From Marsupella aquatica (taxonomy: Eukaryota; Plantae; Marchantiophyta): 64,000 nt of DNA. Numbering within the stretch: the stretch's first letter is position 1; each line of letters starts with the position of its first letter. Positions 12,338 through 47,344 of this stretch are shown in pieces. The stretch is from assembly GCA_973895155.1 (NCBI GenBank), contig OZ316891.1, positions 124,001-188,000 of the forward strand, read 5' to 3'. Both the position numbers and the translations under genes were made by a program. The notes beneath the pieces were generated by a model that was not told the origin of the DNA, did no database searches, and saw only the letters and a list, made by a program, of their open reading frames with translations.

Positions 12338-12340
12338 TAG

Positions 12341-15442: not shown

Positions 15443-15452
15443 AAAAATCTCA

Positions 15453-17320: not shown

Positions 17321-17409
17321 TAGCCCTCTCCTCAAGCGGCGCCGTGCCCTCACAAGCCTTTCTGAAGTCTTCCACCAGAACTAAATCGCCTTTGAAATGC
17401 ACATTGGTT

Positions 17410-22303: not shown

Positions 22304-22379
22304 TGAAGAGACTCACAATTATCCATACGGTCATTTGATTGCCATTCCGCAAATCCAAACGTTGGCTCAACTATCACGC

Positions 22380-23548: not shown

Positions 23549-23602
23549 AACTCCACAATGAAGATTATGTTGAGATGGATATATTGAGATTGAGATCTCT
23601 TC

Positions 23603-24264
23603 CTAATCAAATTTAGACATTCTGGGTTTTTCGGAACATTGGGTAATTCGTGAAATAATAATTGGGAAGTCACTAGAATGCAGAACAAAGTGAAAGGGTT
23701 CGTCTCGCTTCCCTAAGAACTCAAAATAAGCAAAGCGACTAAGACCATAACACACCTCAGCAGTCTTGTTTTTCCAGTATGTCTCCAAGGTTGGCTCTGC
23801 TACCTCTAAATTGATGAATAAGTTCATATCAAACTGACTAAGAAAGCTATCAAAGCCACTTCAAGTCTAAACTCCATCAGAGAGAAGAGCTGAGGAGGAG
23901 TTGCGCAGACCTGGATGCCCAAGTGAAGATATGAAACTAAAACAACAATGATGTCCATAGAGTACCTCTTATACTCGTGGGTTGGTATGTTCGGCCCTGA
24001 ATGTGCGATCCGATAAGGTTGAGGCAACACCGAGTATCGCGGTTAGAACAATCATCCAATCCTTTTTCAATCCATTGTGTCAGACAATACAGCTAGCGTC
24101 CCACCCAAACTGATAGGACCAGATCCCTTCTTGGTCTCTATCCGTACAGAGATCATCCGTACAGAGATCATCCGTACAGAGATCATCCGTGCAGTGATCA
24201 TCCGTATGCAAACAAGCCTTTCAGGAGGGGGTAAAGGGAGGACGAGGTCTTCCACAAACCTCAT
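23603..24264 (-). pseudogene. Degenerate coding-like region of the Sola-like element (possible upstream exon or accessory gene); includes 15-bp tandem ATCCGTACAGAGATC at ~24140-24207
   Basis: Three successive short minus-strand ORFs broken by stops and frameshifts, same strand as the transposase. Confidence 0.35.
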
Positions 24265-24628
24265 TGTTGTTTCGCTCTCTGTCGCTCCTCACTCTCGCTC
24301 CTCGCTCTCGCTCTAGCTCCTCATTCTCGCTCTTGGCTGGCTGCCGCCGCTATCCCTTGCCCTTGCCCTAATTGCCTTCTTGCCCTAATCTGCTGCAACG
24401 CCCTAGATCTTGCCCATCTTGACGTGTCCTCAATATATCTTGCCACGTGTCACTCCTAAAAATGGAAGTTGCCAAGAAAACCGTCATCGTCCTGCTCGCC
24501 AAAGAATCTGATGACTTGGATCTCTCCTCTGTCGGTGATCTTGTGGCCCTAGCGCTTGGGGATTCCCAAGAATTTCAATCACAAGTCCAAAGTAAGTTTC
24601 CGGAGGTTTATTCATGCATCTTAAGTTG

Positions 24629-24890
24629 TTGGATTCGGATGGTCCGAATCCAAGAGGGTTGTTTGGATTCGGACCATCCAAATCCAAGTGGGTTGTTTGG
24701 ATTCGGATGGTCCGAATCCAAGTGGGTTGTTTGGATTCGGATGGTCTGAATCTAAGAGGGTTGTTTGGATTCGGACCATCCGAATCCAAGAGGGTTGTTT
24801 GGATTCGGACCCTCGGATGGTTCAAATCCAAGTGGCTTGATTGGATTTGGATGGTCTGAATCTAAGAGGGTTGTTTGGATTTGGACCATC
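24629..24890. repeat. 34-bp tandem of the same palindrome; continues at 38321-38540 beyond the CACTA insertion
   Basis: Unit GTGGGTTGT-TTGGATTCGGA-(TGG/CCA)-TCCGAATCCAA. Confidence 0.92.
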
Positions 24891-25136
24891 CACTAGTAGA
24901 AATACCCCCTATTTTTTACCATAAAATACGACTAACTATGACTAAAACCGGTCATGTATGACTGAAAATCACTGACGTCGTTCTTGCAACTAGTAGTCAT
25001 AAAAGTGGTGACTTGGATTAACTTAGTCATATTATTGACTAGTGTCATTAGTCATTAGTCTGCAGGATATAGATGTATCTGTGGTTCTGAACCCGAAACC
25101 AAGAAGAGGGCAGGCCTGTGACTCTCGATGATTAGA

Positions 25137-25157
25137 TTTAGGGTTTAGGGTTTAGGG
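25137..25157 (+). repeat. (TTTAGGG)3 plant telomere-type repeat in the CACTA subterminal region
   Basis: tttagggtttagggtttaggg. Confidence 0.85.
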
Positions 25158-25471
25158 TCAAGTATTTGGAACCATACATCAGTCAAACATAAGTGTTTAG
25201 AATGACTTAGTTCGAGTCATATGGGGTTTTCCGTGAGTGATTGATAACACTCAATTGACCGCACTAGTTTCCGTAGACAATGCTGTCATTCATAGTCGAG
25301 ACTGAGTCATTAATGTCACAAAAGCACCAATCCAACTAACAATGGCACGATAATAACTCAAAATATGAGCAATCCATAAAAAAAAAGTATTACCCAACAT
25401 CATGTACTCCAAATTGTGGTCATATATTGAAACAATCCTTCACATTTTGAGTCTCAAATTGTATTTGGTAC

Positions 25472-28335
25472 CTAACACTCTACAAATTTCTCAGGCCACA
25501 TCACAAATGATTCCACAGCATCCACAAGATGGATGTGTGGCGGATCATCTCCCTTGTTTGGAAAGGGTAGAAGATATTTGGGCTTACTGACAGCAGTCAA
25601 CAACAGCACAACATGATCAGCAAGTACCTTCTTTCCATGGAAAGTACTTGCTTCAATTTGAAGTATGCCTTGCCCAACACAAACACCAGAATTATCAGTT
25701 GCCATTAGCCTAAAAGACTGTGCTACAATGCTCACTGCTGTCCCTTTTGGAGAAGTGTTATTCCTCTTCTTCTTTGGTGCCTTGTAAGGCAAAGTCTCCT
25801 TCCCACTGTTTCTGGTCCTCATCTTTCCCATGTTCATCAGTGGTGGGGATTGAGAAAACTCATCTCCAATACCTGGGGGAGGCTGAGAGTCTATGAAAAT
25901 CACATCATTGTCATCACTCTGCTTCTCCTGTGAATCTGAAAATTTGGTAGCCTCTAAGTTTCGTCTCCTCTTCCTACCTGCTGGATTTGGTATGCGCACC
26001 TCCTCCTGTGCTGGCTCTGTACCTCAATAGCAGCCACAAATTCCTTCATTTACAACTAAGCATATAGGCACTAAAGCTGTCAACAAACCATCAAGTTTGC
26101 ACTAATTGAACGTACATGGCATAGATACTCAACCACATTAACAGGCCAGACAGAGTCTTCAAACCAACATTTACTTACTCTCAATGACAGTTGTACCAGG
26201 TTCGATGATCTTTGGATCTGCTGCAACCACTACAATCTGATCACCTGATACACAATGTAACAAACCTTCAGGGTCTAGAACCTGAACCTGAACCATCCTG
26301 CATCCATGAACCTCAAATTCCTAGGTAAAGTCACACTACACTAAACATGATTTCAGATGACACGTACCACTCTTCTTTGTAGGCACAACTTCCACAATAT
26401 TTGCAGGCTCTTCATATGGATGTGCAATTGGGTGCTCAACCCTGCCAGCAATGTGCATCGCCCGCAACTCACGTAGTTCAGCTTGTACTTCCCTTAAGGT
26501 TGATCCTTGGCTTTGAAGAAGACTAGCTATGTCCTTGAATTGACTCTTCATCTCAGTCTCTACTGATGGCCAAGCGTTCTCCACAGTCTTCAACCGGTCT
26601 GATATCTCTGTAAGGGTAGACACTGCTCCCTGCTATATATCACATACACCAACCAAACGGCTCTTCTCAGCAATTTTACAATTGCATAAGGGCTGACAGT
26701 ACTGTACATCTGAAGAAGGACTGTATAACAGATTGTCCATCAATAATGCTCCTAAATTACCTGTTTAGATCCAATGCTGCCTTCATCACACTTTACCCTT
26801 TTGATTTTTGCCACAACCTCCTCTTTTGTGGGTTTCTCTCCAGTAAGCTTTTTCTGGAGCACATAAACATTGCAAGACACGTTTCTCAATGTCAATCTTG
26901 CCTAAACGTAGCGTGCTACTACAACTACATACAGTCCACTCAAATATTGAAATGTAAATAAAGATATGTATGGCATGGGAACCCAACCAATTTGGCTACT
27001 ACTGGTGCATGTCCTCCCCTCCCTATAAGCGTAGGATTCTTCACTGCATTTCTAGCAGCAATCATTTGTGCAGACTTCTCCTGTCCTGCCCTAGACAGGA
27101 ATGTCCCTCTCAGTCGAGCCCATTGTTCTACATGAACACTTGGGGGTGCTTCAGCATGTGGTTTACTGCCATCAGCAATCCATGCTTTGTGCAATCGATG
27201 CCTCTCTGTTTTCATGATAGTTCGTCCATACTCTGCAAGACAATCAGCACTGACCCCTTTCCCAGAATTCCCCAAATATTCCCACTTGTCTCGCATATAT
27301 TTGCAAACCAGTTCCCAGTCAGATGGATGTTGACAATTAAAGTTAGTACAGCTAATGTCCAACCACCGTAGACACTCCATTCGCAAGTCATTGTGCCATC
27401 TATTCTTTCCAGCACTCATCGTTGTGATCCGGCCTTCATCATCAACTTCAACAGTACCCAGCTTCACATTCTCACCTCTCCCAGTGCTCCCTGACGCACT
27501 ACTTGGTGTTGCAAATCCAGGAGTTGCTCTCCCATGGCCTGAGCGGGGTGTGATAGGGTTATCTGAAAAGAGAAACGCAATTAACACCATTAATATCATA
27601 TGGTCTCTGTGAACTACCTGATTTCAATACTTTACTTAGAACTGCTGTAGAAAATACCTCCTCCCCTCCGCAGACTCTGTGTCGGTTGGACTGAAGGTGC
27701 TAGTGCTGGTGCTGGTGCTGGGTTCCCACCATACCCACCATAACCTTGCCATCCTGTCGCCATTGGGAGAGGACCTCCCATGAATTGCCCCGATGGCCCC
27801 ATTGACCCTCCTTCATACATATTTGTGGGCTGCATACGGTCCCACATTGGGTCTGCCATTCACATCAGACCAGGCAAATTGTCATACTCAGACCCACATC
27901 TATTGAGGAACACAATCAGCCAATTTGAGCTCAAAATACACTTGTCCACATGAAACAAATTAAAATGTTCACACTTACTTGGCCAACTTGGACCCATATA
28001 GCTGGCAGAAGGGCCTACACCCATAGACCCGCCATAGTTATTGCCCCCCTGTCGTGCTTGCGGCCAGTTATAGTTGGGGGCATTAAATTGGGGGTTATTG
28101 CAATTGCTGTTGCTTGGGGCTTGGGCTGAGTATACAGAGGGCGTTGGTCGAGATCTCATAGAAGTTCCCCAGTTGCCTTACTACAAGCAGGCTTTGGTGG
28201 AGGGGTAGGATTTGGCATGTCATCATCCTCTGACATGCTAGCACTTGCATTCGGATCTTGGTCAGGATCATATTCTGTATCACCAACATCAGGCATGCAA
28301 TCCTCTACCTCATTCTTATCAGGAGATTCAGCCAT
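25472..28335 (-). CDS. CACTA TnpA-like multi-exon gene with C-terminal DUF8039/Tnp1-like domain (exon boundaries approximate)
   Basis: Minus-strand ORF series with GT-AG borders; RWHNDLRMECLRWLD...MKTERHRLHKAW...QWARL...KSAQMIAARNAVKNPTLIGRGGHA, a coiled coil, and terminal VCVGQG...LPFPN...DAVESFVMWP. Confidence 0.75.
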
Positions 28336-28798
28336 TGAAATAGGGGTCTTTGAAGTCAACCTCTCACTGCGTCGCCTAGGTCCGTCAGGATTACAGAAGG
28401 TCTTCCGTCTACACTGACTCCGCTTCGACAGTGTTGGGATACTTTTGTTACTGCAACACCCACATGAAATTCGACACAGGTTATGTATGTAGTAGTCCAT
28501 TACAGAAGCTACACAATGAACAGACGCACACAATGAGATACACATACAGCTCATACTATGCACAGTCCCTTACATATCCGAAATAGCCTCTTGCACATCA
28601 CCCAACAGGGCTGCGGCACATTGGCGAACCCATGCTCGATGTTTCACAGCCTGCTTCTCATACTCACACATGCCATTTTCGTCTGGCATCCTACTCACCA
28701 AGTTACTGCGGTTGCACAAACAAGTCATCCATTTATTGCTCATACTTGCTACTCATTGCACTTCAAAGAGTCACCTACTCACAACAAAACAAATCCAA

Positions 28799-31700
28799 CT
28801 ACTCATCATCTTCGTCCATGTCAGCTTCAACCTCTCCCTCATAAGTCTGTCTCACTGTCAAGGGGATGTACTCCCTGGTCCCCTGGCCCCGATGTACAAC
28901 GTCTACTGCCGGCTGTTCAAAGGCCCCATGTGCATCCAAACTGAACTCTATTTTAGTACCCTCCATCCTTCGAACTCTAGGTGAGCTATGGCAGACTACA
29001 CGCCAACCACGAGACTCCTCCACATCTAAAAAAAATACTTGCTCCACTTGACTTGGGAACACAAAAGGCTCCATCCATTCTGCCAGTCTTTGGTTAAAAT
29101 TGACCATTAGAAAGCCATCCATATCCCGTTTCATGGTCGCTCTTGGCCCATGCCAATCTGGCTTCACCCATGAACCTTTCATTAGGATGATTTGTTGTGA
29201 TGTGTTCCCATAATTCAGTGCCCAGATGTCTGCCAACTCCCCAACATATCCCATCTCCATCCAGCCCCTGTTGCTCTGAGCATCTATATGCTCAAACACA
29301 GATATTACCCCCGAATTATATGTCACTAAATGCTTGTCCTCATCATCATGCACACGGTACTGATTCCCATATGCTTTCATCCGTTTATACCGCTGTACAA
29401 TACGTCTGGGAGGCATAGACAAGAGGAGAACATCTCTATCCATGTTTGGGTTCTGCCTGCTATGCTCTCGAATTGTTGTCCTAATCCACTCAGGAAAAGT
29501 AGGGAATGCCTGGTGATTTAACCCTAATTGGGCGGCCTTCTGCACATTGTATTCCCTGCATGATGACAATGAGAACAATTTCTCAATACAATGTACATAT
29601 CCTACCAAAATGGATATGAATAAAGAAGGAATGCAAGGAGGGTGCGGAAACATGAGTACTCACTGCCACCAAGGTTGCATCATGACTGTATTGTGTAAGA
29701 CATATAAGTGTGCTGCATCACGAACTTCTGCAGACAATTGCAAGGAAGTAAAAGCGCCTTGAAGAACCTCTCCAGCCACCCCCTCTTCTTCCTCAGCATC
29801 CCACACCCTGCTCCTAACAGTGTCTACACCAGCCATGTACTCTGTAAGGAACCCCAAGGTCTCTTCTTGAATGTAATCGAGAGCCATGCTTGCTTCAGGC
29901 CTATAATAAGTACGTACATGGCCTTTTAGCAACTTCATGTACCGTTCCATTGGATACATCCACCTTGTACTCACTGGGCCGTAGTGGCCCAGATCTTCAA
30001 CCGCATGGATGATCAAATGAGTCATGACATCAAAAAATGCTGGCGGGAAATAAATCTCCAAGTCACAAAGCACACGCACAGTATCTGCCTTTAACTGAGG
30101 AAATGTTGTAGGGTCCCACACCTTCACACAAATACGACGAAAGATCTGACACAATCTCAAAATGACATTGCGAACTGGTTTTTGCATCAATCCCCTCAGA
30201 CATACTGGTAGAATGTCTTGCATCATAACATGGAAGTCATGAGTTTTCATGCTTCCCAACTTCTTCTTCCTTATATGCTTTGCAAAGGCTCCAGCGTACC
30301 CAGAGGGTACTCTGAACGAACTCAGCCTAGACAAAATTGTGTTCCACTCGTTCTGGGTGCAAACATATGGAGCTTGGTACTTGAAAACCACACCCGGCCT
30401 ATTCTGGGATTCTTGCAGCCAAAGTTGAGGACGAATGCCCTTCTCCTGAAGGTCCTTTCGTACTGCTGCAGTATCGTTGTCCCCCGATAGAAACTTCAAA
30501 AGACTTTCGCATACATTCTTCTCAATGTGCATAACATCAATGTTATGTTTGCTTGGCTCAAAATCCTGCACCCATGAAGTACGCATGATTGCCACAATTA
30601 GGTTCAGACACAAGAACTAAAAACTGTTGTGCATAGGATCTGAAGAGGTTCACTGAGTACAAGTGAATATGCAAATGTTACCTTCCAATACTCCAATGAT
30701 GTGTCCATCATTGTCTGCCTTTTGATGCCATGAGTCTTTGCTGGGTCATCTGGCACGTCTCTACAAGCACCATATTCATCATAAGACACCTTGTTCAGTC
30801 CCCACTGCAGAAGTTGGTCTCTACTAACCAACACAGGAGACTCTCGAAGCTCCCTCTGGTTGTTGAAGTGGGCTATGTGGGATTGCCTGTGCCTGAAAGG
30901 GTGGTCGGCAGGAAGATATCGCCTGTGGCCCTGGAATTTGATACTGCCCAAGGAAACGGACCGTTCAGATGTAACATCTGGGCCACATTGTGTGCAACCC
31001 AGATATCCCTTCCCTACCTGCCCAGATATCATGCTATGTCCAGGGTAGTTTGCTATTGAATTAACACACATTGCACGTAGGTTGAATGTCCTCGGTCTAC
31101 CAGGTCCACAAAGTGCATCAACTGTCATAACTCCATGTGTCCATAGAGTAATCCATTCCTCCACCGCAGGGGCCAACCAAACATCTATGTTTGCACTTAT
31201 AGCAGAGTTTGGGCCGGGAATCATAAGACACAAGATCACAAAAAAACGCTTGGTGGATATCCAAGGCGGGAGATTATAATTTATCAAAGTCACTGGCCAG
31301 CAAGAATACACGTTGTTCTTGTCTCCAAAAGGATTAGCACCGTCAAGGCTTAGACCAAACCTCACATTTCTGCTCTCTGCTGCAAAGTCCGGCCACTTCT
31401 CATCTATGTACTTCCAGTGGTTGGAATCTCCAACGTGACGTTGCAAACCATCTGTACTCTTCTGATCAGAGGTCCAAGTCATCATCTTAGAAATGGATGG
31501 ACACCTATAGAGGCGCTGCAATCTTGGAATGAGAGGGAAATGCCGTAGGACCTTAGCAGGTTGAGTTGACTTCCCCACGTTCTTATATCTGTGCTTTCCG
31601 CAGATAGGGCAGGATAGGCAATCAACATATTCTTTTCTGAAAAGTACATGGCCATCTGGGCATGCATGGATGGACACATAATTCAAACCAAGTTTGCTCA

Positions 31701-32556
31701 TCACCTTCTTTGCCTCATACATGTTCTTAGGAGCAATGTTTCCAGCGGGTAGTACTGTCCTCTGTAGGAACATCAACAACTCTGTTACACATATGTTGGG
31801 CACACGGTGACATCCACATATATTGAGGAACATCACTATGAACCCTAGTTTGGAGCAATTTGCACCACCATACAATGGGGACGTAGCTTCCTCCAAGTAG
31901 GCCCCAGTTCCCAAGAATTGACCATCATCTCCAGCTCCTTCTCCAATGTCAAACTCTTCTTGGTCCGATGGATTTGCACCATGCATGTCTGGTTCTTCGT
32001 CCCCCTGTGCCTCTGCATCTTCATAAAGTGCATCCAGGTCTTGAAAAATGTCGGAAACCATCCTAGGAACATCTGCCCCGTCCTCATTAGAAGTCTCGGG
32101 ACCTCCCTGTGGAACATACTCATCTTCGGCATTGTTGCCTGCATGACCAGTGACGTTATGAAAGAATGCAGAGCGTCTTGCTGTATTCACATTTTCAAAA
32201 TCTGCTCTCCATTCATCATCCGATGAATCCTCTTCCTCTGGCACATTCCACACCCTGCGGATTGGATGTCTTCCATGCCTTTGAAGATGAGAATGCACTT
32301 GGTTCAGGGTCATCGAGTGGTATCCTCGACATTGCATGCAGGGGCATCTCATCCGGGCATTTCTGCCCCGACTTGCTCTAAGCACCTCTCTATTCCACAA
32401 CTTGGAGTCATGACATGTAATCCTCAGTGGGTGATGCAAAGGGAGTCGCACTTCATTGGTATGTCTCTGATTCCTTTGCCCCAACTGTCCATCCTCATTT
32501 GCCTGATCCATACCTTCAGCTGTCGTAGGCACCCCTTGGCTATGTACCCTTTGCAC
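28799..32556 (-). CDS. CACTA TnpD transposase (Transposase_21, DUF4218, DUF4216); exons ~32556-30682, 30565-29665, 29555-28799
   Basis: CPCMQC..HLQRHG, IHACPDGHVLF, LRHFPLIPRLQRLY, FGLSLDGANPF, YNLPPW, IDVMHIEKNVCES, WMYPMERYM, EPFVFPSQVEQVFF. Confidence 0.93.
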
Positions 32557-32904
32557 TAGACAGGCTTATACAATTGCATATTCTAAGTACATGGAGGGGA
32601 CACATGCAAGTTTCATGAAGGAAATATCATAGACGCTAAACACACTCACTATCAAGTCCGCTCTGTGCTGGCGCCCGACCTGCTCACTACAGGCAGCAAC
32701 ATCATAACAGACTTGCTATAATCAGTGAAGTGCTTGGTCGTTGACCAGTCAATGGTACAACGTACATCATACACTGCCATACATCTCCACATGCAAAACC
32801 AAGACATTTGGAGGATGAAAAGGAGTAATGTCTTGTAGACAAAAAATAACACACAAAAGTTTATTTCAAAAATGTAACCGTCTAGCATACAGACAGTTGA
32901 GACC

Positions 32905-33855
32905 TTATTCATAATCATTAGGGCTAATAGAATCATACACACTATCAGAAAACTCTTCATCCGTGGTCTGGAACTCAGAAGTAACATATTCTGGGTCGTC
33001 ATAGGGAATGAATGGCTTTGCTGGCCATATTTCATATAAATCATATTTATGCTCATCTAATCGCATATTTGTTGAAAGTGACTGCCTGACCCATTCAGGG
33101 CAGACCACACGCAGCCCATGTGTGATGAGCCATCGTACTGTGGACTTTCCATACTCTCAGCATGCCTTAGAATATGAATGAGCAATGAGATGGGTGGTCT
33201 CATTAGTGAGCTTCTCAATCACTGTACCACCTCTTCTACTGATCTCCCTCTTGAAACGACAGACCCTATATGGCTTGATAGACTTGTCAAGTATAACAGC
33301 CCTCACACCTCTGAACATGGTACGGTCTGGGATGGGTTCTGTCTCATATGGGATAATGTTGTTGTATACTTTTGTGATCTGGTCAATAGACGGAACCCTA
33401 CTCCCACCTCTCCCTGCAATTCTACGAGCCTTGTGCCAATCTCGACTGTCTTTCATCATTTGGACGCTATTGTACTTGCTCTCAAACAAATTGTAATCAT
33501 CAGGATCTTGGACACTCCCTTTTCTAAGGGAGTCAGACATCCATTCTGCTGAAAGTATTTTGACATGCCTCAAGAAGACTTTGTCATAGAAAACCGACCA
33601 AGATGCCATTTTCAGACAATGTTCCCATGTTTCTGCAATAATATGGGTGACTTCAGTGTCCTGTAGTTGAGATTGTGTCTCTGTACCGTGACACTCAATG
33701 AGTTTTCTCCTAAGGATATCCAATCTTGCACTCTGAATACCTGGGACAAAAAAGACTCTGACCCCTTGGAAGATGGGAGCACACTGGGAAGTTGGAAGGG
33801 GGACAAGTTCACGCTTCCGTTTGGAAGGCATGATGCCTCCTGTAATAAAAGCCAA
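32905..33855 (-). pseudogene. Tandem BRCT-domain protein (Pol lambda-like BRCT) with one in-frame TGA at 33157-33159
   Basis: IFQGVRVFFV...VTHII...ILSAEWMSDSL and MFRGVRAVIL...GGTV...TTHLI...VVCPEWVRQSL; the two ORFs are in frame, 16 codons apart. Confidence 0.8.
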
Positions 33856-34734
33856 TAGAGAAATACCAGTGCCCGCGTTGCCTGTCCCTCAATGCTTCAG
33901 CCCAATGCTCTCTGATGACACAAAGTGCACTCTAGCTCCCTGATTGTGGCACACATGACAAGATCGAAAGTCAATACATGCAGTAAATCCCAGCACGGAG
34001 TTATAGGACAAACCATATACTCTTTAGTCAAATTATTTTCACCATGTGTTCATGTAATTACATTGATGAAAGTAGAGCGACAGCCTACTTCAGTATACAC
34101 ATAGCATACATGTGGCCCTTTATATTGTCTTGTCTGCATATAGCCTGAATTCACATTTGAATACCTGTATCTTACGTGACAGTGGTGGGGACTGAGAATG
34201 ATATCATTCAACTGCCCAATTTCCAGTCACATCTGTAATTGTACAAATGTATGGGTCAGGCACACGACTTAAGATGACCTTTGTTAAGAGCAGAAACAAA
34301 TACATAATTTGAGCTATATATGTATTTTCATACTCCAATGCATGCATGTTGTTTTACTCCAGGCAACAGTCTGCTTGGAATCTTTAGTCTTTCACAGTTA
34401 TGGTCTCTTGCCATACACATGATTCACTCAAAGTGGAAAAAACACAGACATCCTTGTGCAGGCCCTAACTTTGAAATTGCAATTAACTTAATCAGTCTTC
34501 AAAAAATAAGTTAACTTAGTTAGTTTTGGAGGTGTCATCGTGTACGAAAGTATAAGGACAGAACCATGTATGGCTGAACTGAAAAAGCAAGATCCAAATT
34601 TACTATGCAGTCACAAAGTCGATCGATAGCTCACTGTAGCGGGGTGTGTCTGAGCTATGGTTGACAGCGCAGTGAGGTGCCCACTTCATTAAAAAGTCCA
34701 AAATGTGAGATGTGCAATGTTGGATTCATTTAGC

Positions 34735-35457
34735 TCAGCCTGTTGGTGCTGATCCACTTGTTTTGTTGCTGGCGCTGGAGGTGTCATCCAGCAATAGCCA
34801 AGTCAAGTGGTCTCTCGCAGGGGTCTGCAAATGAGGGTCAATCGTATGGAGGTGGCAATACAAAAACCACCTATCAACCCCGTGTGCAGAGTGGGAATAA
34901 ATTTGGCGGTCACATGCATACCCTTCTGCCTGAAGGGCTAGTAAACACTCATGGTGCCAGGCTGTGGGACATCTGGGACAATGGACCATGTCTATCCAGT
35001 AGTCATCATCAGGCTCCCCACAAGCAGGACAAATATGTAGTGGGCAAAGGGAGTTATCATGGGGCAAGCATGTCAAACAAAAAAAATGAACACAAAACCT
35101 GTCAGGACATTTCCGCAGCTCTGGTTGATCCCCCTCAACAGTGCCGTTTGTGCCACATTGAGCACACTTGCTGATATTAGTGGCACAATCAAAGCAAGTC
35201 CAAGCACCCCGATGGTCCCCCTGGAGCCCAACCCCAGGGCATGCATTTTGTGGTGCATAAGTGGACCAGGAATTGACATGGAATTGTCTCAGGCAGGGGC
35301 CATCACACATGACCAGGTCACCTCCATCATCACAAATGGCACAGACATGAGCGGCTTTCTGATGAATTTGTGCATTGGACCAATGATGATGTCTACTCAT
35401 GGAATCGTGCCTCACCTGTGATCCGCCTCTGTGTGCTGACCGTTTTGGACGAGCCAT
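34735..35457 (-). CDS. Stand-alone EDM2/NSD-like composite PHD-finger protein
   Basis: CAICDDGGDLVMCDGPCLRQFH...WTCFDC...KCAQC...KCPDRFCVHFF...CPLHICPAC...CPRCPTAWHHECL follows the Cys/His spacing of plant EDM2 PHD fingers. Confidence 0.82.
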   Translation of the reverse strand: MARPKRSAHRGGSQVRHDSMSRHHHWSNAQIHQKAAHVCAICDDGGDLVMCDGPCLRQFHVNSWSTYAPQNACPGVGLQGDHRGAWTCFDCATNISKCAQCGTNGTVEGDQPELRKCPDRFCVHFFCLTCLPHDNSLCPLHICPACGEPDDDYWIDMVHCPRCPTAWHHECLLALQAEGYACDRQIYSHSAHGVDRWFLYCHLHTIDPHLQTPARDHLTWLLLDDTSSASNKTSGSAPTG

Positions 35458-37789
35458 GACTTCTACCCCGATAGAAAACAACACAATATATGGCCAGAGT
35501 CAGTGACGTAGTGAAGCATGCAAAGAATGAGAAACTAAAACTATGAATTAATACCAAAGATTTGAGAAACTGTAATTTCAAGTTCTAAATTCAAGACGGG
35601 TTGTGTGCATGGAGGAAATTTTAAGTTTAGGACTCTGAGATTGTACACAGGCAATTACTGAACGATTTCTGCCATTAAAGGTGGGCAATTGTTGGGCTAG
35701 CATTTTCACACATTAATTTTTATAAATTTTGGGGGCCACGAAAATAAGGGGAACCAGTAGAAGAATTCAAAAGTCCACAGCAGGACATTGCTCAGCACAG
35801 CAAGAAGGCCAGTAGAATACAATCGACACCCCATACATAAAATCCAATCAAATAACCCAAATCCAGTCTACACTTCCATAGTGAAATCCTAGCTTGACCC
35901 TGGCCCCGATCTGAGATTGCTATAGTGATGGGCATGCATAAGAGAGGGAGAGATTTCTATACATACTTGAGGATAAGCAGCACAAACGCTCGACCCTGAG
36001 ACCACCAGTGAAGACAAAGCAATGACAATGTAGAGGGCTCTGAGTGATTATAGACCTCAAGAGTTGACAAAACCCTGGAATGATTTCTTTGTGCCTAGCT
36101 TGGCAAAAGAGAAAGCTCTTGAACGGGTGGGAAAATGATTTGCAAGTGCCACAGACAGAGTGTGGCTCATCAGTTCTGTGGCTCATTAGTTGTTCGTGGA
36201 GGAGTACATTATAGAGTATCACATTTGACTAATGTCCTGTACATTGAATACATACAGTGGCAAAGTAGTCAATGGAAGAGTGACCTGCTCCCTTTGCGTT
36301 CTTCCTGTTGCCGAAATATGAATGTAGAGGTAGAATTGCATGCAGGAAAATTTGAAGTTTAGGGCTATGACATCCATGCTTTGTGCAACCTCTAATCCGA
36401 AAGCCTCCAAAGACACAAGTGAAGCATGTAGGCGCGCGTAATAACTTCTAATTTAGTCATTGACAGTACAAGAGTATACTCTAAAATCTGCGATTCTGAA
36501 AGTACAAGCATTGCAAGCGCGCAGGTCTGAAAAGTTGTTGCAAGACACAAATAAGCACTAAGCGACTAAGGACAGGACCGTTGAGTTGAAATCACAGCTC
36601 AGCAAAGGCAAAGAAAAACCCCCCGCACCCCACCTTAGTTCTGCACAACACTTCTGCACACTAGAATACTAGTGTATAAGATTAGAGCAATTCAAGCCGA
36701 AGCAGAATGAAAGTGCCAACAATATACTGTGATCCCATCTACATTTCCATAGTGAAATCCAAGTTCGACGCCGACCCCGACATGAGATTGCTATAGTGAT
36801 GGGCATGCATAAGAGAGGGAGAGATGATGACACGTACTTGAGGATCGCGAGAGAGAGAAATTTGCAACAGAGAGTGGACACAATGGAAGAGCGAGACACG
36901 ATGGAAGAGCGAGACCGAGAGAGAGGGCGAGAGAGAGTGAGGTGAGAATTCAGCAAGAGAGGTCTCGAATAGGGACAACCTTCTATATATGAACCATAGT
37001 TTTTGCTGTCATTAATTTTCCAGAGTTAAGATGAACAAACAGAGTACAAACAGAGCACAATGAAGCACCACAGTGCGTCGCACGGGACCTCTCACCTCTG
37101 CCTGAACACCAGCCGCACCCAACACCACACCAGAGATCAGTGGTCTTGAAAACAAGTTGACACCCTAAACCTGGCACTTCCAATGTCGCCCGCTCCAATG
37201 TCGCAGCGCATTTTTGTTCTAGCTCGTTCTCCTCTTGACCGAAGAACAACCCAACAAGCAAATGGCGGAAGATGGACGCACTTAGCACCTGGGTGAATGT
37301 GGTCACGTTGCGCTTCAAGTGTGGCCCTAAACCCTTCCTCCTCCCTTCAATCACAGAGAGTCTTCGACCGCAAGAGCAAGAAGCACTTCCTCTCCTCTCA
37401 TCTCCCAATGCTATGCAAGGCAAAGAGGTAAAGACTTACAAAGCTAATGGAGGAAGATGGACCCCCGCACCACGAACTTGGCGTCCGACCCTAAAATTTC
37501 CCGCAATGCCCCCGCAATGCCTTCAGGGAGCACTCGCAAACGCACCCAGCACCCGATTGAATGTGGTCAGGTCGCTTCAAGTGTGGTGTCAAACCCTTCC
37601 TCCTCCCTGAAATCACAGAGAGCCCGACTCACTGCACACTAAGAATCCCATTGTTTCTCCATAAACCTTCGTTCCCTCCTTGATTGATCGACTATCGATC
37701 GCCCCTCTCAATGAGTCGCCTCATTCGCTCCACCTCCCCTCCCCTTTATAAACCCTCTTTGCAGACGAAGACCCTACATTTGCTCCCGC

Positions 37790-37923
37790 GCACAAGGGTG
37801 GAGAGTACTAAGGTTCTCAGCCAGTGACATGTAAGGGGCTCATGTAAGGGGGTACTGCACAACGGTGGAGAGTACTAAGGTACTCAGCCAGTGACATGTA
37901 AGGGGCTCATGTAAGGGGGTACC
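37790..37923. repeat. Two tandem 67-bp copies in the CACTA 5' region
   Basis: gcacaa.ggtggagagtactaaggt.ctcagccagtgacatgtaaggggctcatgtaagggggtac x2. Confidence 0.9.
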
Positions 37924-38775
37924 TCTACTATTTGAAGCTTTCTCACATAAAAAGCTTGAATGTTTGGCAATTGGTGAGTAGCACTCACTCACATAAGAAC
38001 CCTAAACTAAGACAATCAGCTTAGATAGTGGACCTGCCATTTTCCTTATGATGGGATGTTGTAATTAAGTGGTATCCCCCATCCAACTTCAAAGGTGCAT
38101 GGACAACCTTGAACCATGAACAATGTCCCTTGCACCTTGAAGAATGAGTGATTGAAAAGAGTAGGTAAAGTCAACATCGCAAAGGAGTCGCAACAAATGA
38201 GTGGAAACTTTGTGGAAGTGATACTTAAGACATATGTAGTGATAACACCCTAAACTTCCATAACCTTGTCACAATAGTCAATAGTGGTTTGGTAAAAAAT
38301 AGGGGGTATTTCTACTAGTGCCAAATCCAAGAGGGTTGTTTGGATTTGGACCATCCAAATCCAAGTGGGTTGTTTGGATTCGGACCATCCGAATCCAAGT
38401 GGCTTGATTGGATTCAGATGGTCCGAATCTAAGAGGGTTGTTTGGATTCGGACCATCCGAATCCAAGTGGGCTTCTTGTATTAGATTCGGATGGTCCAAA
38501 TCCAACAGGCTTGATTGGATTCGGATGGTCCAAATCCAAGAGCCCTCAATCTCACTTTGACAGTGATTTCTTAAAACAAATTTCATGGATTTGAAGTCCA
38601 ATATGAATTTTCACTCTCCAATGCAGAGAGTGATCTGGTGAATACAACTCTTGCCATTTCAGAGGCAGACTGCGACGATGGGCTCATTTTGGAGGACCGT
38701 GATCCAGGATTTCGGTGAGGACTTGAGTTCTCGCGAGTAAACTTCCGCCTGAATTCATTTAACATTTAGGATCCA

Positions 38776-41700
38776 GTGTTATGTGTCAAGATCAAGACAG
38801 GCAACAACCAAACATTGGTCATCGGACCCGTGGTCTCTGTGGGAATGATAGGAAGAGGAATGAATTCTATCATTGTAGAGGTGTCGGACACGATGAGGTG
38901 GGCAAAGTTGCAACTTCCGTCGAAGGCTTTCTCGGCCGAGTTCAATGTGGATGGTATGCAAGTGGGGAATTAAGTGTGTTGTTGATGGGATTCTTTCCAA
39001 AATCCTACACAAAGGAGAAGATTATTGGAGGACTGAAGGGAATGCTTCCTTTGGACATTTTTTATGGGTTTCTTTATTTGAAACTCAACATTGTAAACAA
39101 CCCATCAAAGTTCTCTCTTCCATCCACATGGACTCTTAACAATTTGCTTGAGAAAGCAGGTCTAGTGTCACCAGACTCAAATGTTTGGATCACCAAGGCA
39201 CTAGCCTTTGCACACACGCTTGACCTGGAAAAAGCAAATCTATGGGTAGAGTCTTTGGTGAAGTTGAGGAAAAGTACACAACCACAGAACATAATTGAGT
39301 CTACGCCAGCCAAAAGAACTCCAGCAACTACGATGGAGACAACACAAACTACTGCAGCAACAACCATGGATAGAGCGGCAGGGAAGCGAAAGCAGAGGGA
39401 GAAGAAGCTTCCGGTTGAGAAACCTACTTCAGTTGAGAAGAAGATCACGGCTCCAGCCAAGAAGAAGTCAAGGGAGAAGAAGAAACAAAAAACCGACACC
39501 GGAGTTGTGAATTCAACTCCTGTAGATTTTTCATTACATGCTGAAGATGAGGGTGATAGGCCACATGCTCCAGAGGAGAAAGACGTCTTAGAAGGGAATG
39601 AAGTTCTTCAACAAATGGAGCAGTACTATACTTTTGGGATAAACGAAATTTTTCTGATCCCAGTTGAAAGTATTTTTGCCGCACCAGCGAGACTATGCTA
39701 TCGGATGATGAATTTTGATCATGTGCAAGACATTGCTGATTCCATGATCAAAACACCTGGGCATGAGCCACATGTCGCTGATTTGATTCCTTTTAACGTC
39801 AAGCGAAGAAAGGTACTCCATTTTGAGAATACGGAGTCGGACCGGAAGGATTTTTTGGCCGGAGTGAAAAAGGGCGAGGTCCAATTTCTAGCCGTTAGTG
39901 GTCAGCACTCTGCGAGAGCTGCGAGATGGATTCGTGATTGGGCAACGAAGGATGCCAAGCTCACCCAGTTGGCCAAGAAGTTAGAATTCAGGAAATCCAT
40001 AATATTGTCTGATCGCACACCGTCTTCAATTCTTGTTGAGCACTCCATGAGATCGAACGCCATCAATAGCACGATGGTGTTTCAGTCTTGCTTTAAAGAT
40101 ACAGTTGTCCATGCGAGGCGGCAGTTTGTTGAATGTGGAAATCCAGACAAACCAAAACATGGCGACAACAAAACAAATGCTCAAGACAACCAAAAATTTC
40201 AGGTAAGAAATGTGATTACTTTGTATGCATTTCTCTACCATAGAGAGTAATTCTATTTTGGATTCGGATGGTCTCAGTCCGACACGATTTGTCAAAGAGT
40301 ATTGGAACTTTTGGAATGTTTAGTACGAGTTTTGTTTTTGATTGAGACCATCCGAATCCAAAACTATTATCGCACATTAGAATCCTTTTTTTCCAACCCT
40401 TGAGTTGGGGATAACTGACTAGCTTTCCTTTTGGATTGTAGGATTGGTTGGCTCTGGCAAGAATGACTATGGGCAGGAAGGACTTGCGAAATGTATACTG
40501 GCTACTTTTTGCGGACAATGATCTTTTTGAGTTGTGGCGGTTAGTCTGTGAGATGTGGTTGCATGGGAAACTTCCTGATGGAGCTGGGATGGAAGGAAAT
40601 AACAAGTCCAAAAAAGCAATTACCATTGCCATGTTTCGTCCCTTTGATGGTGAGTTGATCTCACAGAAAGACATCACAAAAATCCTGACACAAGTGAAGT
40701 CAGGAAAGGCATTGCTGAAGAAAGATGCCACAAATAAATCTGACATACCCTCAATAGAGGAGCTTGCGAAGGATGTGAAAAAAGTGAGGAAGCTCAAGTC
40801 TCTCATTGAAGAGTACTACTTTGGCAAGGATCCAAGGAATTTCCCTTCGGATACCGACTGGAAGAAAGTTGTAGAGGTTCTGCCATTGTTGAGTGTTGAC
40901 GCAGAATTCAAGAGATGCAGAAGAGCGGCTGGTGAAGTTTTTTTGTCAAATCTGTTGAAGCCAAATCATACCAGGGAGAGTGCAATCTTGCCAATAGCTC
41001 TGGTGATGCGCCTTGATGACATTTATTGCCAGAAGTTTGGCGGAGGGACACATTCTCGGAGCCAACCGTGGGTCAGGTTCTTTAGTGACAATCTAATGAA
41101 AATAGTTGATCCACCAGCAATAGAAGAATCATCTCCAACGTGCTCACTTGCCATTGTTGACTTCAGTCGAGATCACCAGAAGCTGTGGATGGAAGCAAAA
41201 GTTTTGGTCTTCTACAATACATTGTGGAGCTACCACAAAATCTTACAATCGTTGTAGCCATAACTGTTCATCCGGGGTCTCTTGCAATGAATGTCCTAAG
41301 CTCACTTCAAAAATTGGGACAAGAGAAATCTCACACGATTCACATTGAGTATGGGAGTTATTCTCGAGAGGATCAACCGCACCCGCTTGATTCATGTTGG
41401 GGAGGCGGAATTGAAGAAGTTATATTCGCAGGAATTTCTTGAGATGAAAATGTCAATTGGAATGATGTTTTCAAACCCAATCACCCAAAGCCAAAATTCT
41501 TTTTTGGTTCAAAAGATACTGATTTTGAGGTCACCAAGATTGACACTGGGAAGGCAAAGGTTGACACAGACGACGTGTCAAAACCCGAAGATCTAAAAAT
41601 GATGCTGACCCCAGAAGAGGCGACCAAGGTTTTGCACATGGCCCCTCGATTTGAGATAGTTGGTGCTCGTGGTGGTTGGGTGAATCCACATGCCAAACCC

Positions 41701-42177
41701 ACGCGGATGATACAGAGGATTATTGAATCCTTGTCAGAAGCTGGAGACTTGATTCTTGATTTTTTCTCGGGTGGTCAAGTGATGAAGACAACATTCTTGG
41801 TGCAACGCGAATGCTTTGTTTATTGTGACTCTCAAGATGAGAGACACTTTGTGGAAGCGTATGCTTCATTCCTTTGTGAGAGGGTCCCCTCAATCAAGGA
41901 AAATTGGGATCCTCGTGGTGGGAGTTCTAGGCATTGGAAACCCACTATTGCGGATGTTTCTGCCAAACATGAATCAGCTGATAATTCTGAAGAAGTGGGC
42001 GCTAAGTCAGTCAAAGATAATGGGGCATCAGAGGTGGCGTATGCAAAGAATTTGGATGACCGTGTAGGTCAAAGTGAAAGCATAGAACCCTACGATGTTG
42101 ATGATAATGTTGGTCTTGCACACGCCCTTCATCAGGTGCAGGTGCCCAAAGTTAGAACTAAGAGAGGCTTCTCTTAG
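38776..42177 (+). pseudogene. ParB/sulfiredoxin-like domain fused to a beta-class N4/N6 DNA-methyltransferase-like domain; intron 40203-40441; probable C-terminal tail at 45471-45682
   Basis: IPVESIFAAP..YRMMNFDHVQDIADSM..QFLAVSGQHSARA (ParB-like); SLAIVDFS, EEVIFAG, NPHAKPTRMIQRIIESLSEAGDLILDFFSGG..QRECF (MTase motif X/I order). Frameshift ~41200 and TGA 41440-41442. Confidence 0.65.
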
Positions 42178-42345: not shown

Positions 42346-45300
42346 TGTCAAACACTTGTCAAGGAGCTTAAGCGGCTTTTCTCCCCAAAAGACTACCTAA
42401 TACCTGCTCCATATCATACCAGGGTCACAAAGGATTGACAAAACTTCTGAAATGTGCCTACAATGACTAATCACTCCATACATAAGTAGTTTCAACTCTC
42501 CACTTCTAGAGAGGTAGTCCCCTTGACTACTTTTGTACTCACACCCTTCCCCTCTCCTCTACTCCCAAGGATCAGCAAGGGGGATCTCCGCTCCAAGCTG
42601 TCACCTTAGAGAAGAGTCTCACACAAACACCCAAGAACCAAAGTACTTTCCTCTTCAAGCTTAAGTCTCCTCAAGACCCTCAAAGTAGTGTTACCCCTCA
42701 ACCTTGCCCCCCCTGGCCTTGGTTTGGGTCCACACATCCCCTTTGAGCTCTAGAGAAGGCTCCTCTATCTAAGGACTCTTCCTCTTGTTCTTACTTCTTG
42801 TTAACACCACACACCAAGCAAAATACTTTCCACCCTCAAGCTATAATCCTCTCTAAGTCTCAAAGTAGTGCTCTACCTTAACCTTGCCTCTTGGCCTTGG
42901 TTTTGTACTAGCACATCCCCTTCAAGCTTAGACCAAGATTACATCATAGCATGGACTCTTCTCTTGCTCTCATATGCTTCAAATGCACTCACACTTAATG
43001 CTCACAATGAAGATTGGCAAGTCTCCTTTTATTGCATCACCTTTACAACAAAAGTTCACTACACATTCTCCACACTAAGCATGGACCACCTCTCCCTTCT
43101 CAAGCTTAGCCCTACCTTGACAAGGTAGAGATTCCACTTAAGAGATGAGACTCCCGGTCCCTAACAAAGGAAAACTTTCTCCTTATATACTATTCTCCTT
43201 CCACACCACACCAAGCTTGACCTGGGGTCCAACTACTCCTCCCCCAAGTCCTCCTAACACACAAAGTGCAACTCTATAGTTTGTAGCTCACTCTACAACC
43301 TATTGCTTGACTCCTTCCAAGCCCTGGAATATGCCACACATGAGTTGCATGCTTTGACCTCCAAACCTGATCTCACTTATGGTCCTCCTCACCAGCTTCC
43401 CAACCCACTTGAAAGCTCGCAAAAAGAGTGAGTGAGTCTCAAGTTGTGTCATGTCAAAGTTGGCTCCTTATTTACTAGTTCTTACTTACTACCCCGACCT
43501 ATCAACTTACTTTCCTTACCCTAACGGTCTTGCACCTTTACCCTCTCTTCTCCATGTATCCTAACTTGGGTGACACGGGTGCAAGAAGTGTCGGCCTAAA
43601 AACCTGGTCTTACTTCCCCCATGCCGACTCCCGTTTGCAAGCTATGGGGACCCCCTTGTGGCCTCCGCTAAAAATATATGAGTGATTATTTTTCTGGGTT
43701 TCCACCTTCACCGAGGGGTGCCTTACCTTCCCCTAACTCAGCACAAAAAAATTTGGGCCCCAACGGATACCCCTAGCTAAAGTTATGCCCATTCTCCCAA
43801 GGCTATTTTTGGTGTAAAGCGGGTGTAAGCGGCGACCCGATTACACTTGAACCTTACACGCCCCTTATGGGGATTTCACGTGTCATGAGGGGAGAGTACT
43901 CTCATTATACTCACATTTCTTATGAAGAAGATTGATAAGGACACCAATTTTTGCAGCATTTTCCTCTCTCTTAAATTCAATCTAAAATGGCAGCATTCTC
44001 TATTGGATCGAATGACAGCAGGTCAATTGATAGCTCAGCAGGTCTACAGCACCCTTCTCAGTCCACCTCCATAGCCATCCAGCCTTGCAAGTGATTCAAA
44101 ATCGCAGCAGAATTTTGCAGCAGCCATAGCCCACCAATTCGCAGCTTGCAGCACAATAGCACAGTAGCAGATTCGAAGCATAGCAACTGATTCGAAGCAC
44201 AGGAGCAGCATCCATAGCTTGATTCCTTCTCAACAACTAGCTCTATTCCAATCACTTAGCCAAGCAGGTCTCTCTTCTCAATTTCGTAGCTGCCCACCTC
44301 TGCAATTTCACAGCTAGCAGCAGCATCCATCAATTCAGCAGCATCAAGGTAGCAGCCAGCCAATTCTCGTGAGTATCTCATGCCTGATTAATAGCAGCAC
44401 CTCTAATCTATTGTGCCGCTGCCATAGCAGCAAGCAGCCTTCCCAATTCAAAGCCAGCCTCCCTATTCCAATCAGCAGCCATAGCTCACAATTCAATTTC
44501 ACAGTAGCAGCTAGGTCAAGTCCTTCTCAGCAGCAGCTAGCTCAATTCAATCCCGCACCTGCCTATTCAGATCAAGAGTGGCCTATTTTGATGAGCACCA
44601 GCCCTTCAATTAGCCCACCTTGTGCATTCCTGCCCATGTCGTGCTTGCCTGACCTCGTGCTAGTCTGGTCGCAGCCACGTCGACACGTTTTGACACTTAG
44701 AAAAATTTTGTTTTCCTCTCAGGAGAAACAGTTATACTGGCCCCTCTTGAAGGCCATTCCATAATTCACTCAAATGTCCAAACATACTTCTGAGCATATT
44801 TCTGGAATCCTTGGACATAGGACTCACTCCTAAATTTATCAAACTCTCTAAATACTCCATAACGACTTTCCTAAAAATACATAAGTTTGACCATATCTAT
44901 TAAAGCGCATTACTATTCCAAATCTTTGTGTTTCCAAAAAGTAACAAAAGGTGACAAATTATTTCTGAGACAATCCAGGGATATTATGGTCTATACTTAA
45001 CTCAATTCTAACCTCGAACCCACAAAATTTACCCCTTGGCTATTTTCTCCGGGGCCCGCTAGTTGGTTATTTTAATTTCTGTCAAAATACTCACAACTCC
45101 TAGGTTGAGACCCCACTTGACTTCATACTTTTTCAGGGTTCCCTAGGGACCTCCCAACACCCATGGGAGAAATATCAGCCAAAAATAAGATGTCAGGTGT
45201 CGGGTCATTTTCCGGTCCCGACTTAGTCGCCTATCCTAACTAAGGGTGGAACATTTATTGCCTACCAAAATCACATTACTTATCCCTTTACATTTGCTTA

Positions 45301-45470
45301 GAACAACACATTTTCTCCCTTCCATGATTTCCTACTAGCCTTTCCTAGTGACTTAGGGTTGTAAACCCTAAGTACTTTGCTAACACTACAACAACTTTCT
45401 TACTATTCCTTGTACAAACAACAAAAAAATTGACAAGTTCCTTGCATACCCTATATTGAGCCGGTCCACA
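42346..45470 (-). mobile_element. Family B 5' LTR (3.1 kb) with PBS and a short leader remnant (~42180-42345)
   Basis: TG...CA ends match solo LTR 51228-53221 in inverted orientation; no second LTR or TSD seen. Confidence 0.8.
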
Positions 45471-45917
45471 GTGGGCCAAATAGAGGCCAAGAAGTTTCAT
45501 TGGATGCTGCTCCATCGATTCTTAACAGGAAGGAGTATAAGAGAGGAGAATTGGGATTGATAACTCCTGTTTGGACGTCACTTTATTGGGTAGAACAAAG
45601 TACTTCAGATGTCAATTTTGAAATCCAAGAGGAGCTGGGTGTTGACATTATTGATGAATACGGATCTCTTTTTTCAGACTGAGATCAAACCGTCTGACTT
45701 TCCATTTTTTCATACCAATCTAAAATACTTCTCGGTCTCACAGAATGCGGTCAGCAATTAGAGCCTCGATATCCACCTACGCTCTTTGGGGCTTCTAAAA
45801 ATGGTATGTAGGTTTTTTTGTTGTTAGTCATTGTCTTGTATTTTTGGACTGAGACAATCTCAGTCCAAAGTTCAAATTTGGTTTTCTTTCTAAGAGTTGT
45901 ATTTGTTGCCCTTGCAG

Positions 45918-46954
45918 AATTGAGACCTTGTCCCATCAAGCGGAAGTTGCTCATTTTGGATCTTAACAAAATACTTTGGGATTCACTTGAATTCCAAAGC
46001 AAGGGCAAATCCAGAAACATTGTGACCCCAAGTGGAGTGCATTGGGATAGATCAAATGGAACTAGTCGCATGTATACAGAGAGGCCAGGGTTCCATGAGT
46101 TTCTAAAGTTGGTTTTTGACCGGTTTGACGTTGCAATTTGGACATGTGCTGGGATGCCGCGGACAGTGAAAATGTTGAACATGATGTTCACTGTTGAGGA
46201 GCGGTTGAAACTGAAGTTTGTATTCACACAGGTGGAAGCCTTTGACACAGGCATTCAAAGGCATGACATTACAAATGGAAAGGCAAATGTGCTATTGAAG
46301 GATTTTCGGGTGGTATAGAGTGCATTTGGAAATCTATATGATGAAACCAACACACTCCTTGTGGATAACTCCCCCTTGAAGGCATTTGCCAACCCAGACA
46401 TGACCGGACTATTTCCAGTGCCCTACACACATGCCAATCGTGGAGACAATTTTCTTCTAACAATTCTTTGGCCATGTCTTGAGAAACTGTCACATGCAAG
46501 TGACATTCGTTGTTATCTTCTCCTAAACTCTCCAAAGTGGTCTCTATTGCACATTAAGAGAGACAAGGAAAAAAATGAGATTACTTATGATCAACTTAGT
46601 AAGAGATGTGCAGCAAAAATTTGGAAGTCACAGTATAGGCATAGTGTGCTGGACCTCAATAGCAATGAGATTCCTTGGGCTATGAAGCACCGTATATGTA
46701 GCTTACGTCCTGAGGTGGAACTTGACGATGCACTTGTCACCTCACTTGCTAGATCATTTGTAGGACGGGAATATTCAGGTCTGTATAGAGAAAATCCCAT
46801 ACACTTTTTGCGGGAGATTATAGCAGTTAGGAACAACACCACCAAATTTCATCTCCCTGAAGATAAAGGGAGTTGCAACCGTGACATTAGGGTAGATAGT
46901 AAAGGAGACAAGGGCACGTGCTCAAATAAATATTGTAAGGAGCACTTTGTTTAG
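45918..46954 (+). pseudogene. FCP1/NIF-family HAD phosphatase-like gene, premature TAG at 46316-46318; small upstream exon 45744-45803
   Basis: KLLILDLNKIL, RPGFHEFLKLVFDRFDVAIWT, LLKDF..V*, ETNTLLVDNSPLKAFANP; the two ORFs are in frame. Confidence 0.85.
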
Positions 46955-47318
46955 AGATCTGACTCATGTTAAGCCCATTAGATAGTAAAAAATGGGTGCC
47001 AGCCCTGGATATTCATTGTAAGTTTGGACACAATTGTATATAATTATTTCACACATTATCAATCAATGGTCCTTGCCTAGGCTTCTTTGTGCGTAAATGT
47101 TTTTACAAGTATGATCTCTATCCCATGGTTCTTTGTGAACTAATAAGTAATATAATACTATTATAATTAATATAATATAATATATTAATATAATACTAAT
47201 CAGATTTGGCCTATAAAGTGTACATTTAGGTATCAAAAAGTGTATATTTGGGCTTCTTAAAGTGTACATTTGGGGACATAAAAGTGTACATTTCAGGACT
47301 GATTTGTGAACAAACGAA

Positions 47319-47344
47319 AATACACTTTTAATGAATAGGCTGAT
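47319..47344 (-). repeat. Right TIR of the Sola-like element
   Basis: aatacacttttaatgaataggctgat followed by TSD cttt. Confidence 0.95.

Follow-up and report, generated by a model that had tools for sequence, protein, structure and literature searches.

A probably EDM2-derived PHD finger gene, very probably under purifying selection, in a CACTA transposon of the liverwort Marsupella aquatica

EDM2 and EDM2-like proteins, which belong to the ASI1-AIPP1-EDM2 (AAE) complex, contain a composite PHD finger module and a C-terminal tail. In the available text of two articles, EDM2 is reported to bind H3K9me2 (review PMC7472560; also PMC7529245), EDM2/AAE favours distal polyadenylation across intronic heterochromatin (PMC7472560; PMC7529245) and EDM2 is described to carry acidic regions and an N6-adenine-methyltransferase-like ELP domain (PMC7529245). 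Here we describe an open reading frame (ORF) that has this module and tail in common with EDM2 and that lies in a CACTA-type DNA transposon of the liverwort Marsupella aquatica. The transposon is located in a stretch of 64,000 nucleotides (assembly GCA_973895155.1, contig OZ316891.1, positions 124,001 to 188,000 of the forward strand), which was analysed at its full length and is referred to as the window. EDM2 proteins are 600-1600 amino acids long compared to 240 amino acids for the protein encoded by the ORF (the PHD ORF), and the N-terminal RFD-like, acidic and methyltransferase-like domains are found only in EDM2.

Separate accessory genes under selection have likewise been described in other plant DNA transposons, namely VANC in VANDAL elements and TnpA in Spm/CACTA elements (10.64898/2026.08.24.746577, available part). 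The PHD ORF shares with such anti-silencing factors that it is a separate, conserved gene encoded by the element. According to the same text, VANC and TnpA act sequence-specifically and the helix-turn-helix of TnpA is transposase-derived, whereas the PHD ORF is a host-type module without such a domain; the term PHD does not occur in the main text of that study. Factors of this kind act on cognate copies, which lose DNA methylation. Extra coding DNA, with captured pieces upstream of the transposase, is also known from CACTA elements with gained domains or fragments (Peptidase_C48, Transposase_24 and AP2 pieces; PMC8978399, available part). The gains described there lie inside ORF2 as domains or are fragments of short length, whereas the element in the window has two whole extra frames, one encoding PHD fingers and one encoding BRCT repeats; neither PHD nor BRCT is mentioned in the available text of PMC8978399. 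RAG2 beside RAG1/Transib is likewise a gene with a PHD finger that accompanies a DDE transposase, but it represents another finger type, superfamily and kingdom, and binding to the transposase would here be predicted by analogy. The interleaved layout of the fingers is shared with the PHD1-3 cassette of NSD1-3, although the PHD ORF has no SET or PWWP domain. A search of literature titles and the first parts of abstracts yielded no CACTA-borne EDM2-type PHD or BRCT gene; its scope did not extend to Repbase reports, the majority of subscription journals or the supplements of bioRxiv preprints, among them the list of 962 Spm proteins that belongs to 10.64898/2026.08.24.746577.

The PHD ORF is situated between the terminal inverted repeats (TIRs) of the element, on the same strand as the transposase gene. 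The features of the PHD ORF and of the element that carries it are as follows.

35457-34735, minus strand: intronless ORF of 240 codons, ATG to TGA, with a short basic N-terminus, a conserved helix (around residues 28-34), a triple EDM2-type PHD module and an EDM2-type tail
35185..35343, minus strand: finger 1, ligands C39 C42 C51 C55 H60 C73 C88 C91, no Asp/Glu just before C39
35035..35166, minus strand: finger 2, ligands C98 C101 C117 C122 C127 C130 C138 H141, with C127 in place of the His of EDM2/NSD
34798..35031, minus strand: finger 3, ligands C143 C146 C160 C163 H168 C171 C201 H204, plus a TP-x-R-x-H tail
24891..38320, minus strand: CACTA-type DNA transposon of 13,430 bp, recognized by TIRs and Tnp2 domains, all genes found inside on the minus strand
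38290..38320, minus strand: TIR of 31 bp on the 5' side of the genes
24891..24921, plus strand: TIR of 31 bp on the 3' side of the genes
28799..32511, minus strand: spliced Tnp2-family transposase, recognized by Pfam domains, exact exon ends predicted
33831-32904, minus strand: second passenger, a twin-BRCT gene flanked by the PHD and transposase genes (Pfam BRCT, E-value 5e-11, two stretches)

The two TIRs match perfectly over 31 bp and begin with CACTA, in agreement with the short TIRs of CACTA (En/Spm) elements, which start with CACTA or CACTG, and the transposase contains the CACTA-type Pfam domains Transpos_assoc, Transposase_21, DUF4218 and DUF4216 (E-values 4e-61, 2e-27, 9e-9 and 2e-5, respectively). 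The preliminary description of this DNA had proposed that a stand-alone, uninterrupted ORF consisting essentially of EDM2-type PHD fingers is present inside CACTA TIRs. This proposal held: the 240 codons are open, the ORF has its own start and stop, and the Cys/His ligands, whose failure to align to PHD profiles would have spoken against it, are present at all 24 positions. Two Pfam families, PHD-1st_NSD (E-value 1.6e-5) and PHDvar_NSD (3e-5), matched the ORF slightly below their curated cut-offs, and a sequence search of the PDB identified PHD1-3 of human NSD2 (E-value 1e-7, residues 27-172). In a profile search of longer proteins, the best named relative was EDM2 of Physcomitrium (E-value 3e-24); this alignment covers residues 38-220 in 216 columns with 30% identity and includes the tail YCxxH..I...L.TP.R.H. 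An AlphaFold2 model based on a 17-row alignment had a mean predicted local distance difference test (pLDDT) score of 74, with values above 79 at residues 51-210 and disordered ends. Foldseek returned multi-finger PHD domains as top matches (PZP, E-value 2e-4; PHD5-C5HCH of NSD1/NSD3), with low TM-scores, and the first ESM Atlas cluster (0.93) was a group from plants that carries PHD families of the NSD type. No plant structure of this module was found in the PDB sequence and Foldseek searches, and tblastn detected no second PHD copy within the window.

Sibling copies of the element were sought in public sequencing runs, in which contig depth does not equal copy number. Seven runs from five studies, none of them RNA, hold part of the BRCT-PHD stretch; run X7 (share 0.06) contained three short pieces less than 90% alike and was left out of the counts. 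The element is covered end to end (30 of 30 bins) by contigs of four runs from two studies. Long contigs with few differences extend over the transposase, BRCT and PHD genes in run X1 at depths of 200-260. Run X4, which stems from another study and has another organism label, contains a sister family that is about 95% alike, represented by six pieces over the transposase, BRCT and PHD genes at depths of 2294-2506. The depths in X1 and X4 are in line with a multi-copy element. Upstream of about position 35700 the major X4 family diverges from the window, yet it retains the PHD ORF. Most of the X4 variants are also present, at low depth, in run X5 of a third study.

Comparison of the window with the X4 majority variants gave 19.3 nonsynonymous differences per 566 sites and 15.7 synonymous differences per 154 sites, corresponding to a ratio of nonsynonymous to synonymous rates (dN/dS) of 0.31-0.35. 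This ratio is based on 35 of 40 X4 majority differences, among which site 35320 mixes in another family; one further difference is part of a compensating indel pair and four were left out. In a simulation that kept the mutation types, 16 of the 35 single changes were silent where 10.3 were expected (P 0.025), and in the core of the PHD ORF 12 of 24 were silent where 6.3 were expected (P 0.007). No zinc ligand differs between the window and the X4 majority. Divergence from X4 is 42/382 nucleotides in adjacent non-coding DNA, near the silent rate of 0.10, versus 9/297 in the 3' part of the PHD ORF, and amounts to 18/429 in the BRCT gene and 54/1449 in the transposase gene. Changes private to the PHD copy in the window (three nonsynonymous, one silent) are as expected after insertion. 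These comparisons indicate that the PHD ORF is very probably an accessory gene of the CACTA element kept by purifying selection. The preliminary description had called for its presence and dN/dS in sibling copies and had named a neutrally decaying fragment confined to this copy as the contrary outcome; instead, the sister family keeps the frame with a dN/dS of about 0.3. Three aspects of the data reduce the strength of this conclusion. The runs were retrieved with the window stretch itself, and X1 and X2 may be the source of the window. No single X4 contig bridges the PHD and transposase genes, which are linked there by equal depth. If all four omitted differences were amino acid changes, dN/dS would rise to about 0.4 by a hand estimate.

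Database searches identified a wider family of short PHD relatives of about 130-280 amino acids, with about 38-58% identity where measured. All 13 short clusters whose source was looked up come from Logan, JGI or ENA assemblies only and have no NCBI or UniRef record. For phylogenetic analysis, 7 of 162 proteins were dropped because of short cover, and a careful tree was made with 45 hand-picked rows of the 155. At least 19 short rows with enough cover fall on one side of a branch, and 12 of these do so in the careful tree with 100/100 support, on a stem whose length is 1.83 changes per site. Among 13 aligned relatives, which are 39-59% identical, 22 of the 24 ligand columns are invariant versus 20 of 164 other core columns. 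A diverged PHD piece at depth 2740 was found in X1, and its loose end agrees with the relative P0003 at 7 of 9 residues (read by hand). Because this piece matches P0003 at such a depth, at least one distant, P0003-like relative appears to be repetitive.

Twelve of 19 short rows have the EDM2-type tail motif (a number of those lacking it are truncated), as do 105 of 130 plant-type rows and none of the six NSD-like rows, which align only up to profile position of about 177 and have no tail. In the tree, the group nearest to the short clade consists of six rows of 280-768 amino acids (support 89/89, not starred), and the four of these whose source was looked up belong to the liverworts Calypogeia, Riccia and Marchantia, representing liverwort EDM2 paralogues. 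A motif 12-13 residues ahead of the first Cys, which was defined after the sequences had been seen, is shared by 21 of 22 short rows, and among the 111 others only the Calypogeia protein has it. Attachment of the short clade on the NSD side was not rejected in an approximately unbiased (AU) test (p 0.34), so the tree alone does not settle the donor. The motifs and best matches support an EDM2-type short family, and the PHD ORF likely derives from the capture of a host EDM2-family module, an event that would be old rather than recent because of the long stem of the short clade. The phylogeny against EDM2 and NSD genes for which the preliminary description had asked thus places liverwort EDM2 paralogues nearest and leaves the NSD side statistically acceptable. 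Identity of the PHD ORF as an NSD methyltransferase was considered and rejected, given its lack of SET and PWWP domains and the presence of the EDM2 tail. Grasses have short EDM2-like genes of their own (P0030-P0034, 296-361 amino acids, from the rice Os03g0266600 cluster, maize, sorghum and Miscanthus). These PHD-only forms group inside seed-plant EDM2 and have a separate origin; joining them to the short family was rejected (AU test, p 0.026).

On the minus strand, the element is organized as a 5' region followed by the PHD frame, the twin-BRCT frame, the Tnp2 transposase and further frames without family match. Additional features of the element and its insertion site are:

35861-35974 and 36732-36845, minus strand: two 114-nucleotide copies, 85% alike, candidate non-coding 5' exon ends
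25472..27623, minus strand: further open frames without family match, putative second-ORF (TnpA-type) exons by position only
24625..24890, resuming at 38321-38542, no strand assigned: 34-bp tandem array in which the element is inserted

Each 114-nucleotide copy begins near a GT donor-like site, and an acceptor-like AG is found shortly before the ATG of the PHD, BRCT and transposase frames alike. Since an acceptor-like AG precedes each of the three frames and a donor-like GT is present at the 114-nucleotide copies, we infer that the PHD, BRCT and transposase messages may be spliced from a common non-coding first exon. A 3-bp target-site duplication is typical of most plant CACTA elements. The flanks of the single copy studied here end with ATC and begin with CCA, without a 3-bp duplication; compared to the 34-bp array unit only one C is doubled at the insertion, within a C run at the junction, and a single copy cannot fix the duplication length of the family. 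At nucleotide 31053 the transposase has an Asn (ANYPG) at what we take to be the position of the second catalytic Asp of CACTA enzymes, and from this substitution the window copy may be inactive. In the BRCT gene of the window, an in-frame stop is present at codon 225 and the frame continues to codon 308. Weak matches of the BRCT frame include TopBP1 and ligase 4, and its first repeat presumably resembles that of plant polymerase lambda.

By analogy with EDM2, the PHD protein is a predicted chromatin binder that could help the element to stay expressed when silenced, a tentative proposal to which we assign slightly less than an even chance. The non-catalytic triple-PHD protein would be translated from its own mRNA, spliced off the shared non-coding 5' exon, and would bind chromatin in support of the element's own expression under silencing. 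If the transposase message shares the promoter of the two genes upstream of it, it would have to extend past both of their 3' ends while the chromatin is silenced, which would match the setting where early polyadenylation is suppressed by EDM2. Lacking the other domains of EDM2, the PHD protein would serve as a reduced adaptor or else compete with host EDM2.

Several observations weigh against this proposed role, and most of them concern the remodelling of the module relative to EDM2. Asp or Glu at positions -2 to -4 of the first Cys is found in none of the 22 short rows compared to 107 of 113 others, and the stretch before finger 1 has a median net acid of 0 in short rows versus 9 in the others; in the PHD ORF a conserved helix takes the place of the acidic patch. 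The fifth ligand of finger 2 is Cys in 18 of 19 short rows, whereas it is His in 129 of 130 plant-type and 6 of 6 NSD-like rows, and the insert of about 20 amino acids in finger 2 of EDM2 has been lost. The acidic regions and the ELP domain are absent, leaving a transposon-borne frame that consists of the PHD module only, and with the other domains of EDM2 its expected route to RNA-processing partners is missing as well. In fingers of the AIRE/BHC80 type, acids before the first Cys hold the H3 tail. The histone-tail surface of the module is therefore likely altered, and since the acidic pre-finger residues are gone and a His ligand is replaced by Cys, H3K9me2 reading by EDM2 cannot be assumed for the PHD ORF, whose mark or partner is probably different. 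The BRCT neighbour, moreover, suits a role in integration or repair better than one in expression. The DNA context of the relatives offered nothing confirmed in scans of metagenome (62 and 145 pattern matches), viral (15) and prokaryote (81) sequences. Judged by its sequence, the PHD ORF is EDM2-derived but not an EDM2. What stands of the preliminary description is an EDM2-type module that forms its own gene under selection; a direct transfer of EDM2 function does not follow, in view of the lost acids, the Cys for His and the missing domains, and the anti-silencing decoy or target-site selection that it suggested would be putative roles. The twin-BRCT neighbour is an addition to that description.

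The same BRCT neighbour leads to the main alternative explanation, in which both passengers aid integration: the PHD protein would bind the transposase complex and tether it to chosen chromatin, as RAG2 does for RAG1, and the BRCT protein would attract repair factors to the cuts or shield such factors there. Two non-catalytic adaptor genes, one of chromatin type and one of repair type, stand in a row ahead of the transposase, both are less diverged than the non-coding DNA, and a new partner could account for the remodelled surface. RAG2 is reported to bind H3K4me3 through its PHD finger and to stimulate the transposition of Transib (PMC5175335, PMC4840297). Contact of the PHD protein with the transposase would be predicted by analogy, however, the one insertion site lies in a tandem array and is uninformative on preference, and the known part of the donor family is in transcript processing, not in targeting. 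We regard an integration aid as possible though somewhat unlikely. Whether the PHD frame is a complete gene was considered as well. It could be the final coding exon of a gene for a longer protein, spliced to N-terminal exons upstream (35500-37000), as the acceptor-like AG lies 5 nucleotides ahead of the ATG and the relatives P0004, P0005 and P0027 have called extensions ahead of the aligned Met. In most relatives, however, the starting Met precedes the first Cys by about 30-40 residues, the major X4 family keeps the ORF while diverging from the window upstream of it, and a search for longer forms gave two proteins, neither in the short clade (weak evidence), making a longer protein improbable.

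Two further explanations concern the status of the PHD ORF and of its relatives. CACTA elements often hold captured fragments (PMC8978399, available part), and the PHD ORF could be neutral, Pack-type cargo, a host fragment copied along that serves at most as camouflage against silencing. The private changes of this copy (three nonsynonymous, one silent) and the stop in the BRCT gene agree with this, but private decay is expected of any single inserted copy, and the dN/dS between families, the invariant ligands, the family-wide derived features and the long stem separating the clade from any host gene all argue against it. Pack-type fragments are recent, near-identical and decaying, whereas the best named host protein is 30% identical. 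Neutral cargo is already largely refuted and we consider it very improbable. Alternatively, the distant short relatives might be ordinary single-copy host genes, of which only this lineage took one up, and the annotated EDM2-like genes of 296-361 amino acids in grasses show that short host genes of this kind exist. These grass genes lie inside seed-plant EDM2 and were rejected as members of the short family, none of the 13 looked-up clusters has an NCBI or UniRef record, and the depth of the P0003-like piece in X1 points to a repetitive sequence; such an origin for the relatives has little chance of being correct.

Several other features were observed in the window. Just outside the CACTA element, three frames are present at 38763-42177 (plus strand), the last of which matches N6_N4_Mtase (E-value 4e-6) and weakly resembles CcrM/RsrI-type bacterial amino-methyltransferases, while the first has a GQHS motif that we take to be reminiscent of ParB/Srx folds and gave no database match. 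This region is a candidate for a mobile gene that encodes a methyltransferase of adenine or N4-cytosine, with the CACTA element in the array upstream. An element at 42346-53221 is bounded by inverted ends of about 880 bp that are 98-100% alike, and it contains NIF/HAD-phosphatase-like frames at 45812-46954. Units that contain gag-like frames and repeat head to tail every 4983 bp occupy 10470-22303 and have a near-identical inverted copy at 54397-58070, representing either tandem LTR-element pieces or an assembly duplication. Tandem arrays of 66 bp and 34 bp (22339-23555, 24625-24890 and 38321-38542) are built on one palindromic core and face each other across 23550-24625. A 1007-amino acid frame at 6600-10428 (minus strand) matches DUF7869 (E-value 3e-43) and weakly Transposase_23, and a 22-bp array at 6126-6306 is similar to an array at 47215-47293.

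Returning to expression support, the widest form of the proposal is that a CACTA lineage of non-seed plants long ago took and retooled a host read-through module, which together with its BRCT partner would form reader-based counter-silencing, a third kind beside VANC and TnpA. We regard this full scenario as unlikely. A transposon-borne copy of the EDM2 module kept by selection would imply that an element has turned the heterochromatin read-through system of its host, or the reader of that system, to its own use. The plant transposon anti-silencing proteins described in the literature, in its available part, act by contrast on their own DNA motifs. The PHD ORF represents a small, naturally trimmed version of a module for which the PDB searches gave no plant structure, and with it one can test directly if the expression or the target choice of CACTA elements is under the control of accessory readers.
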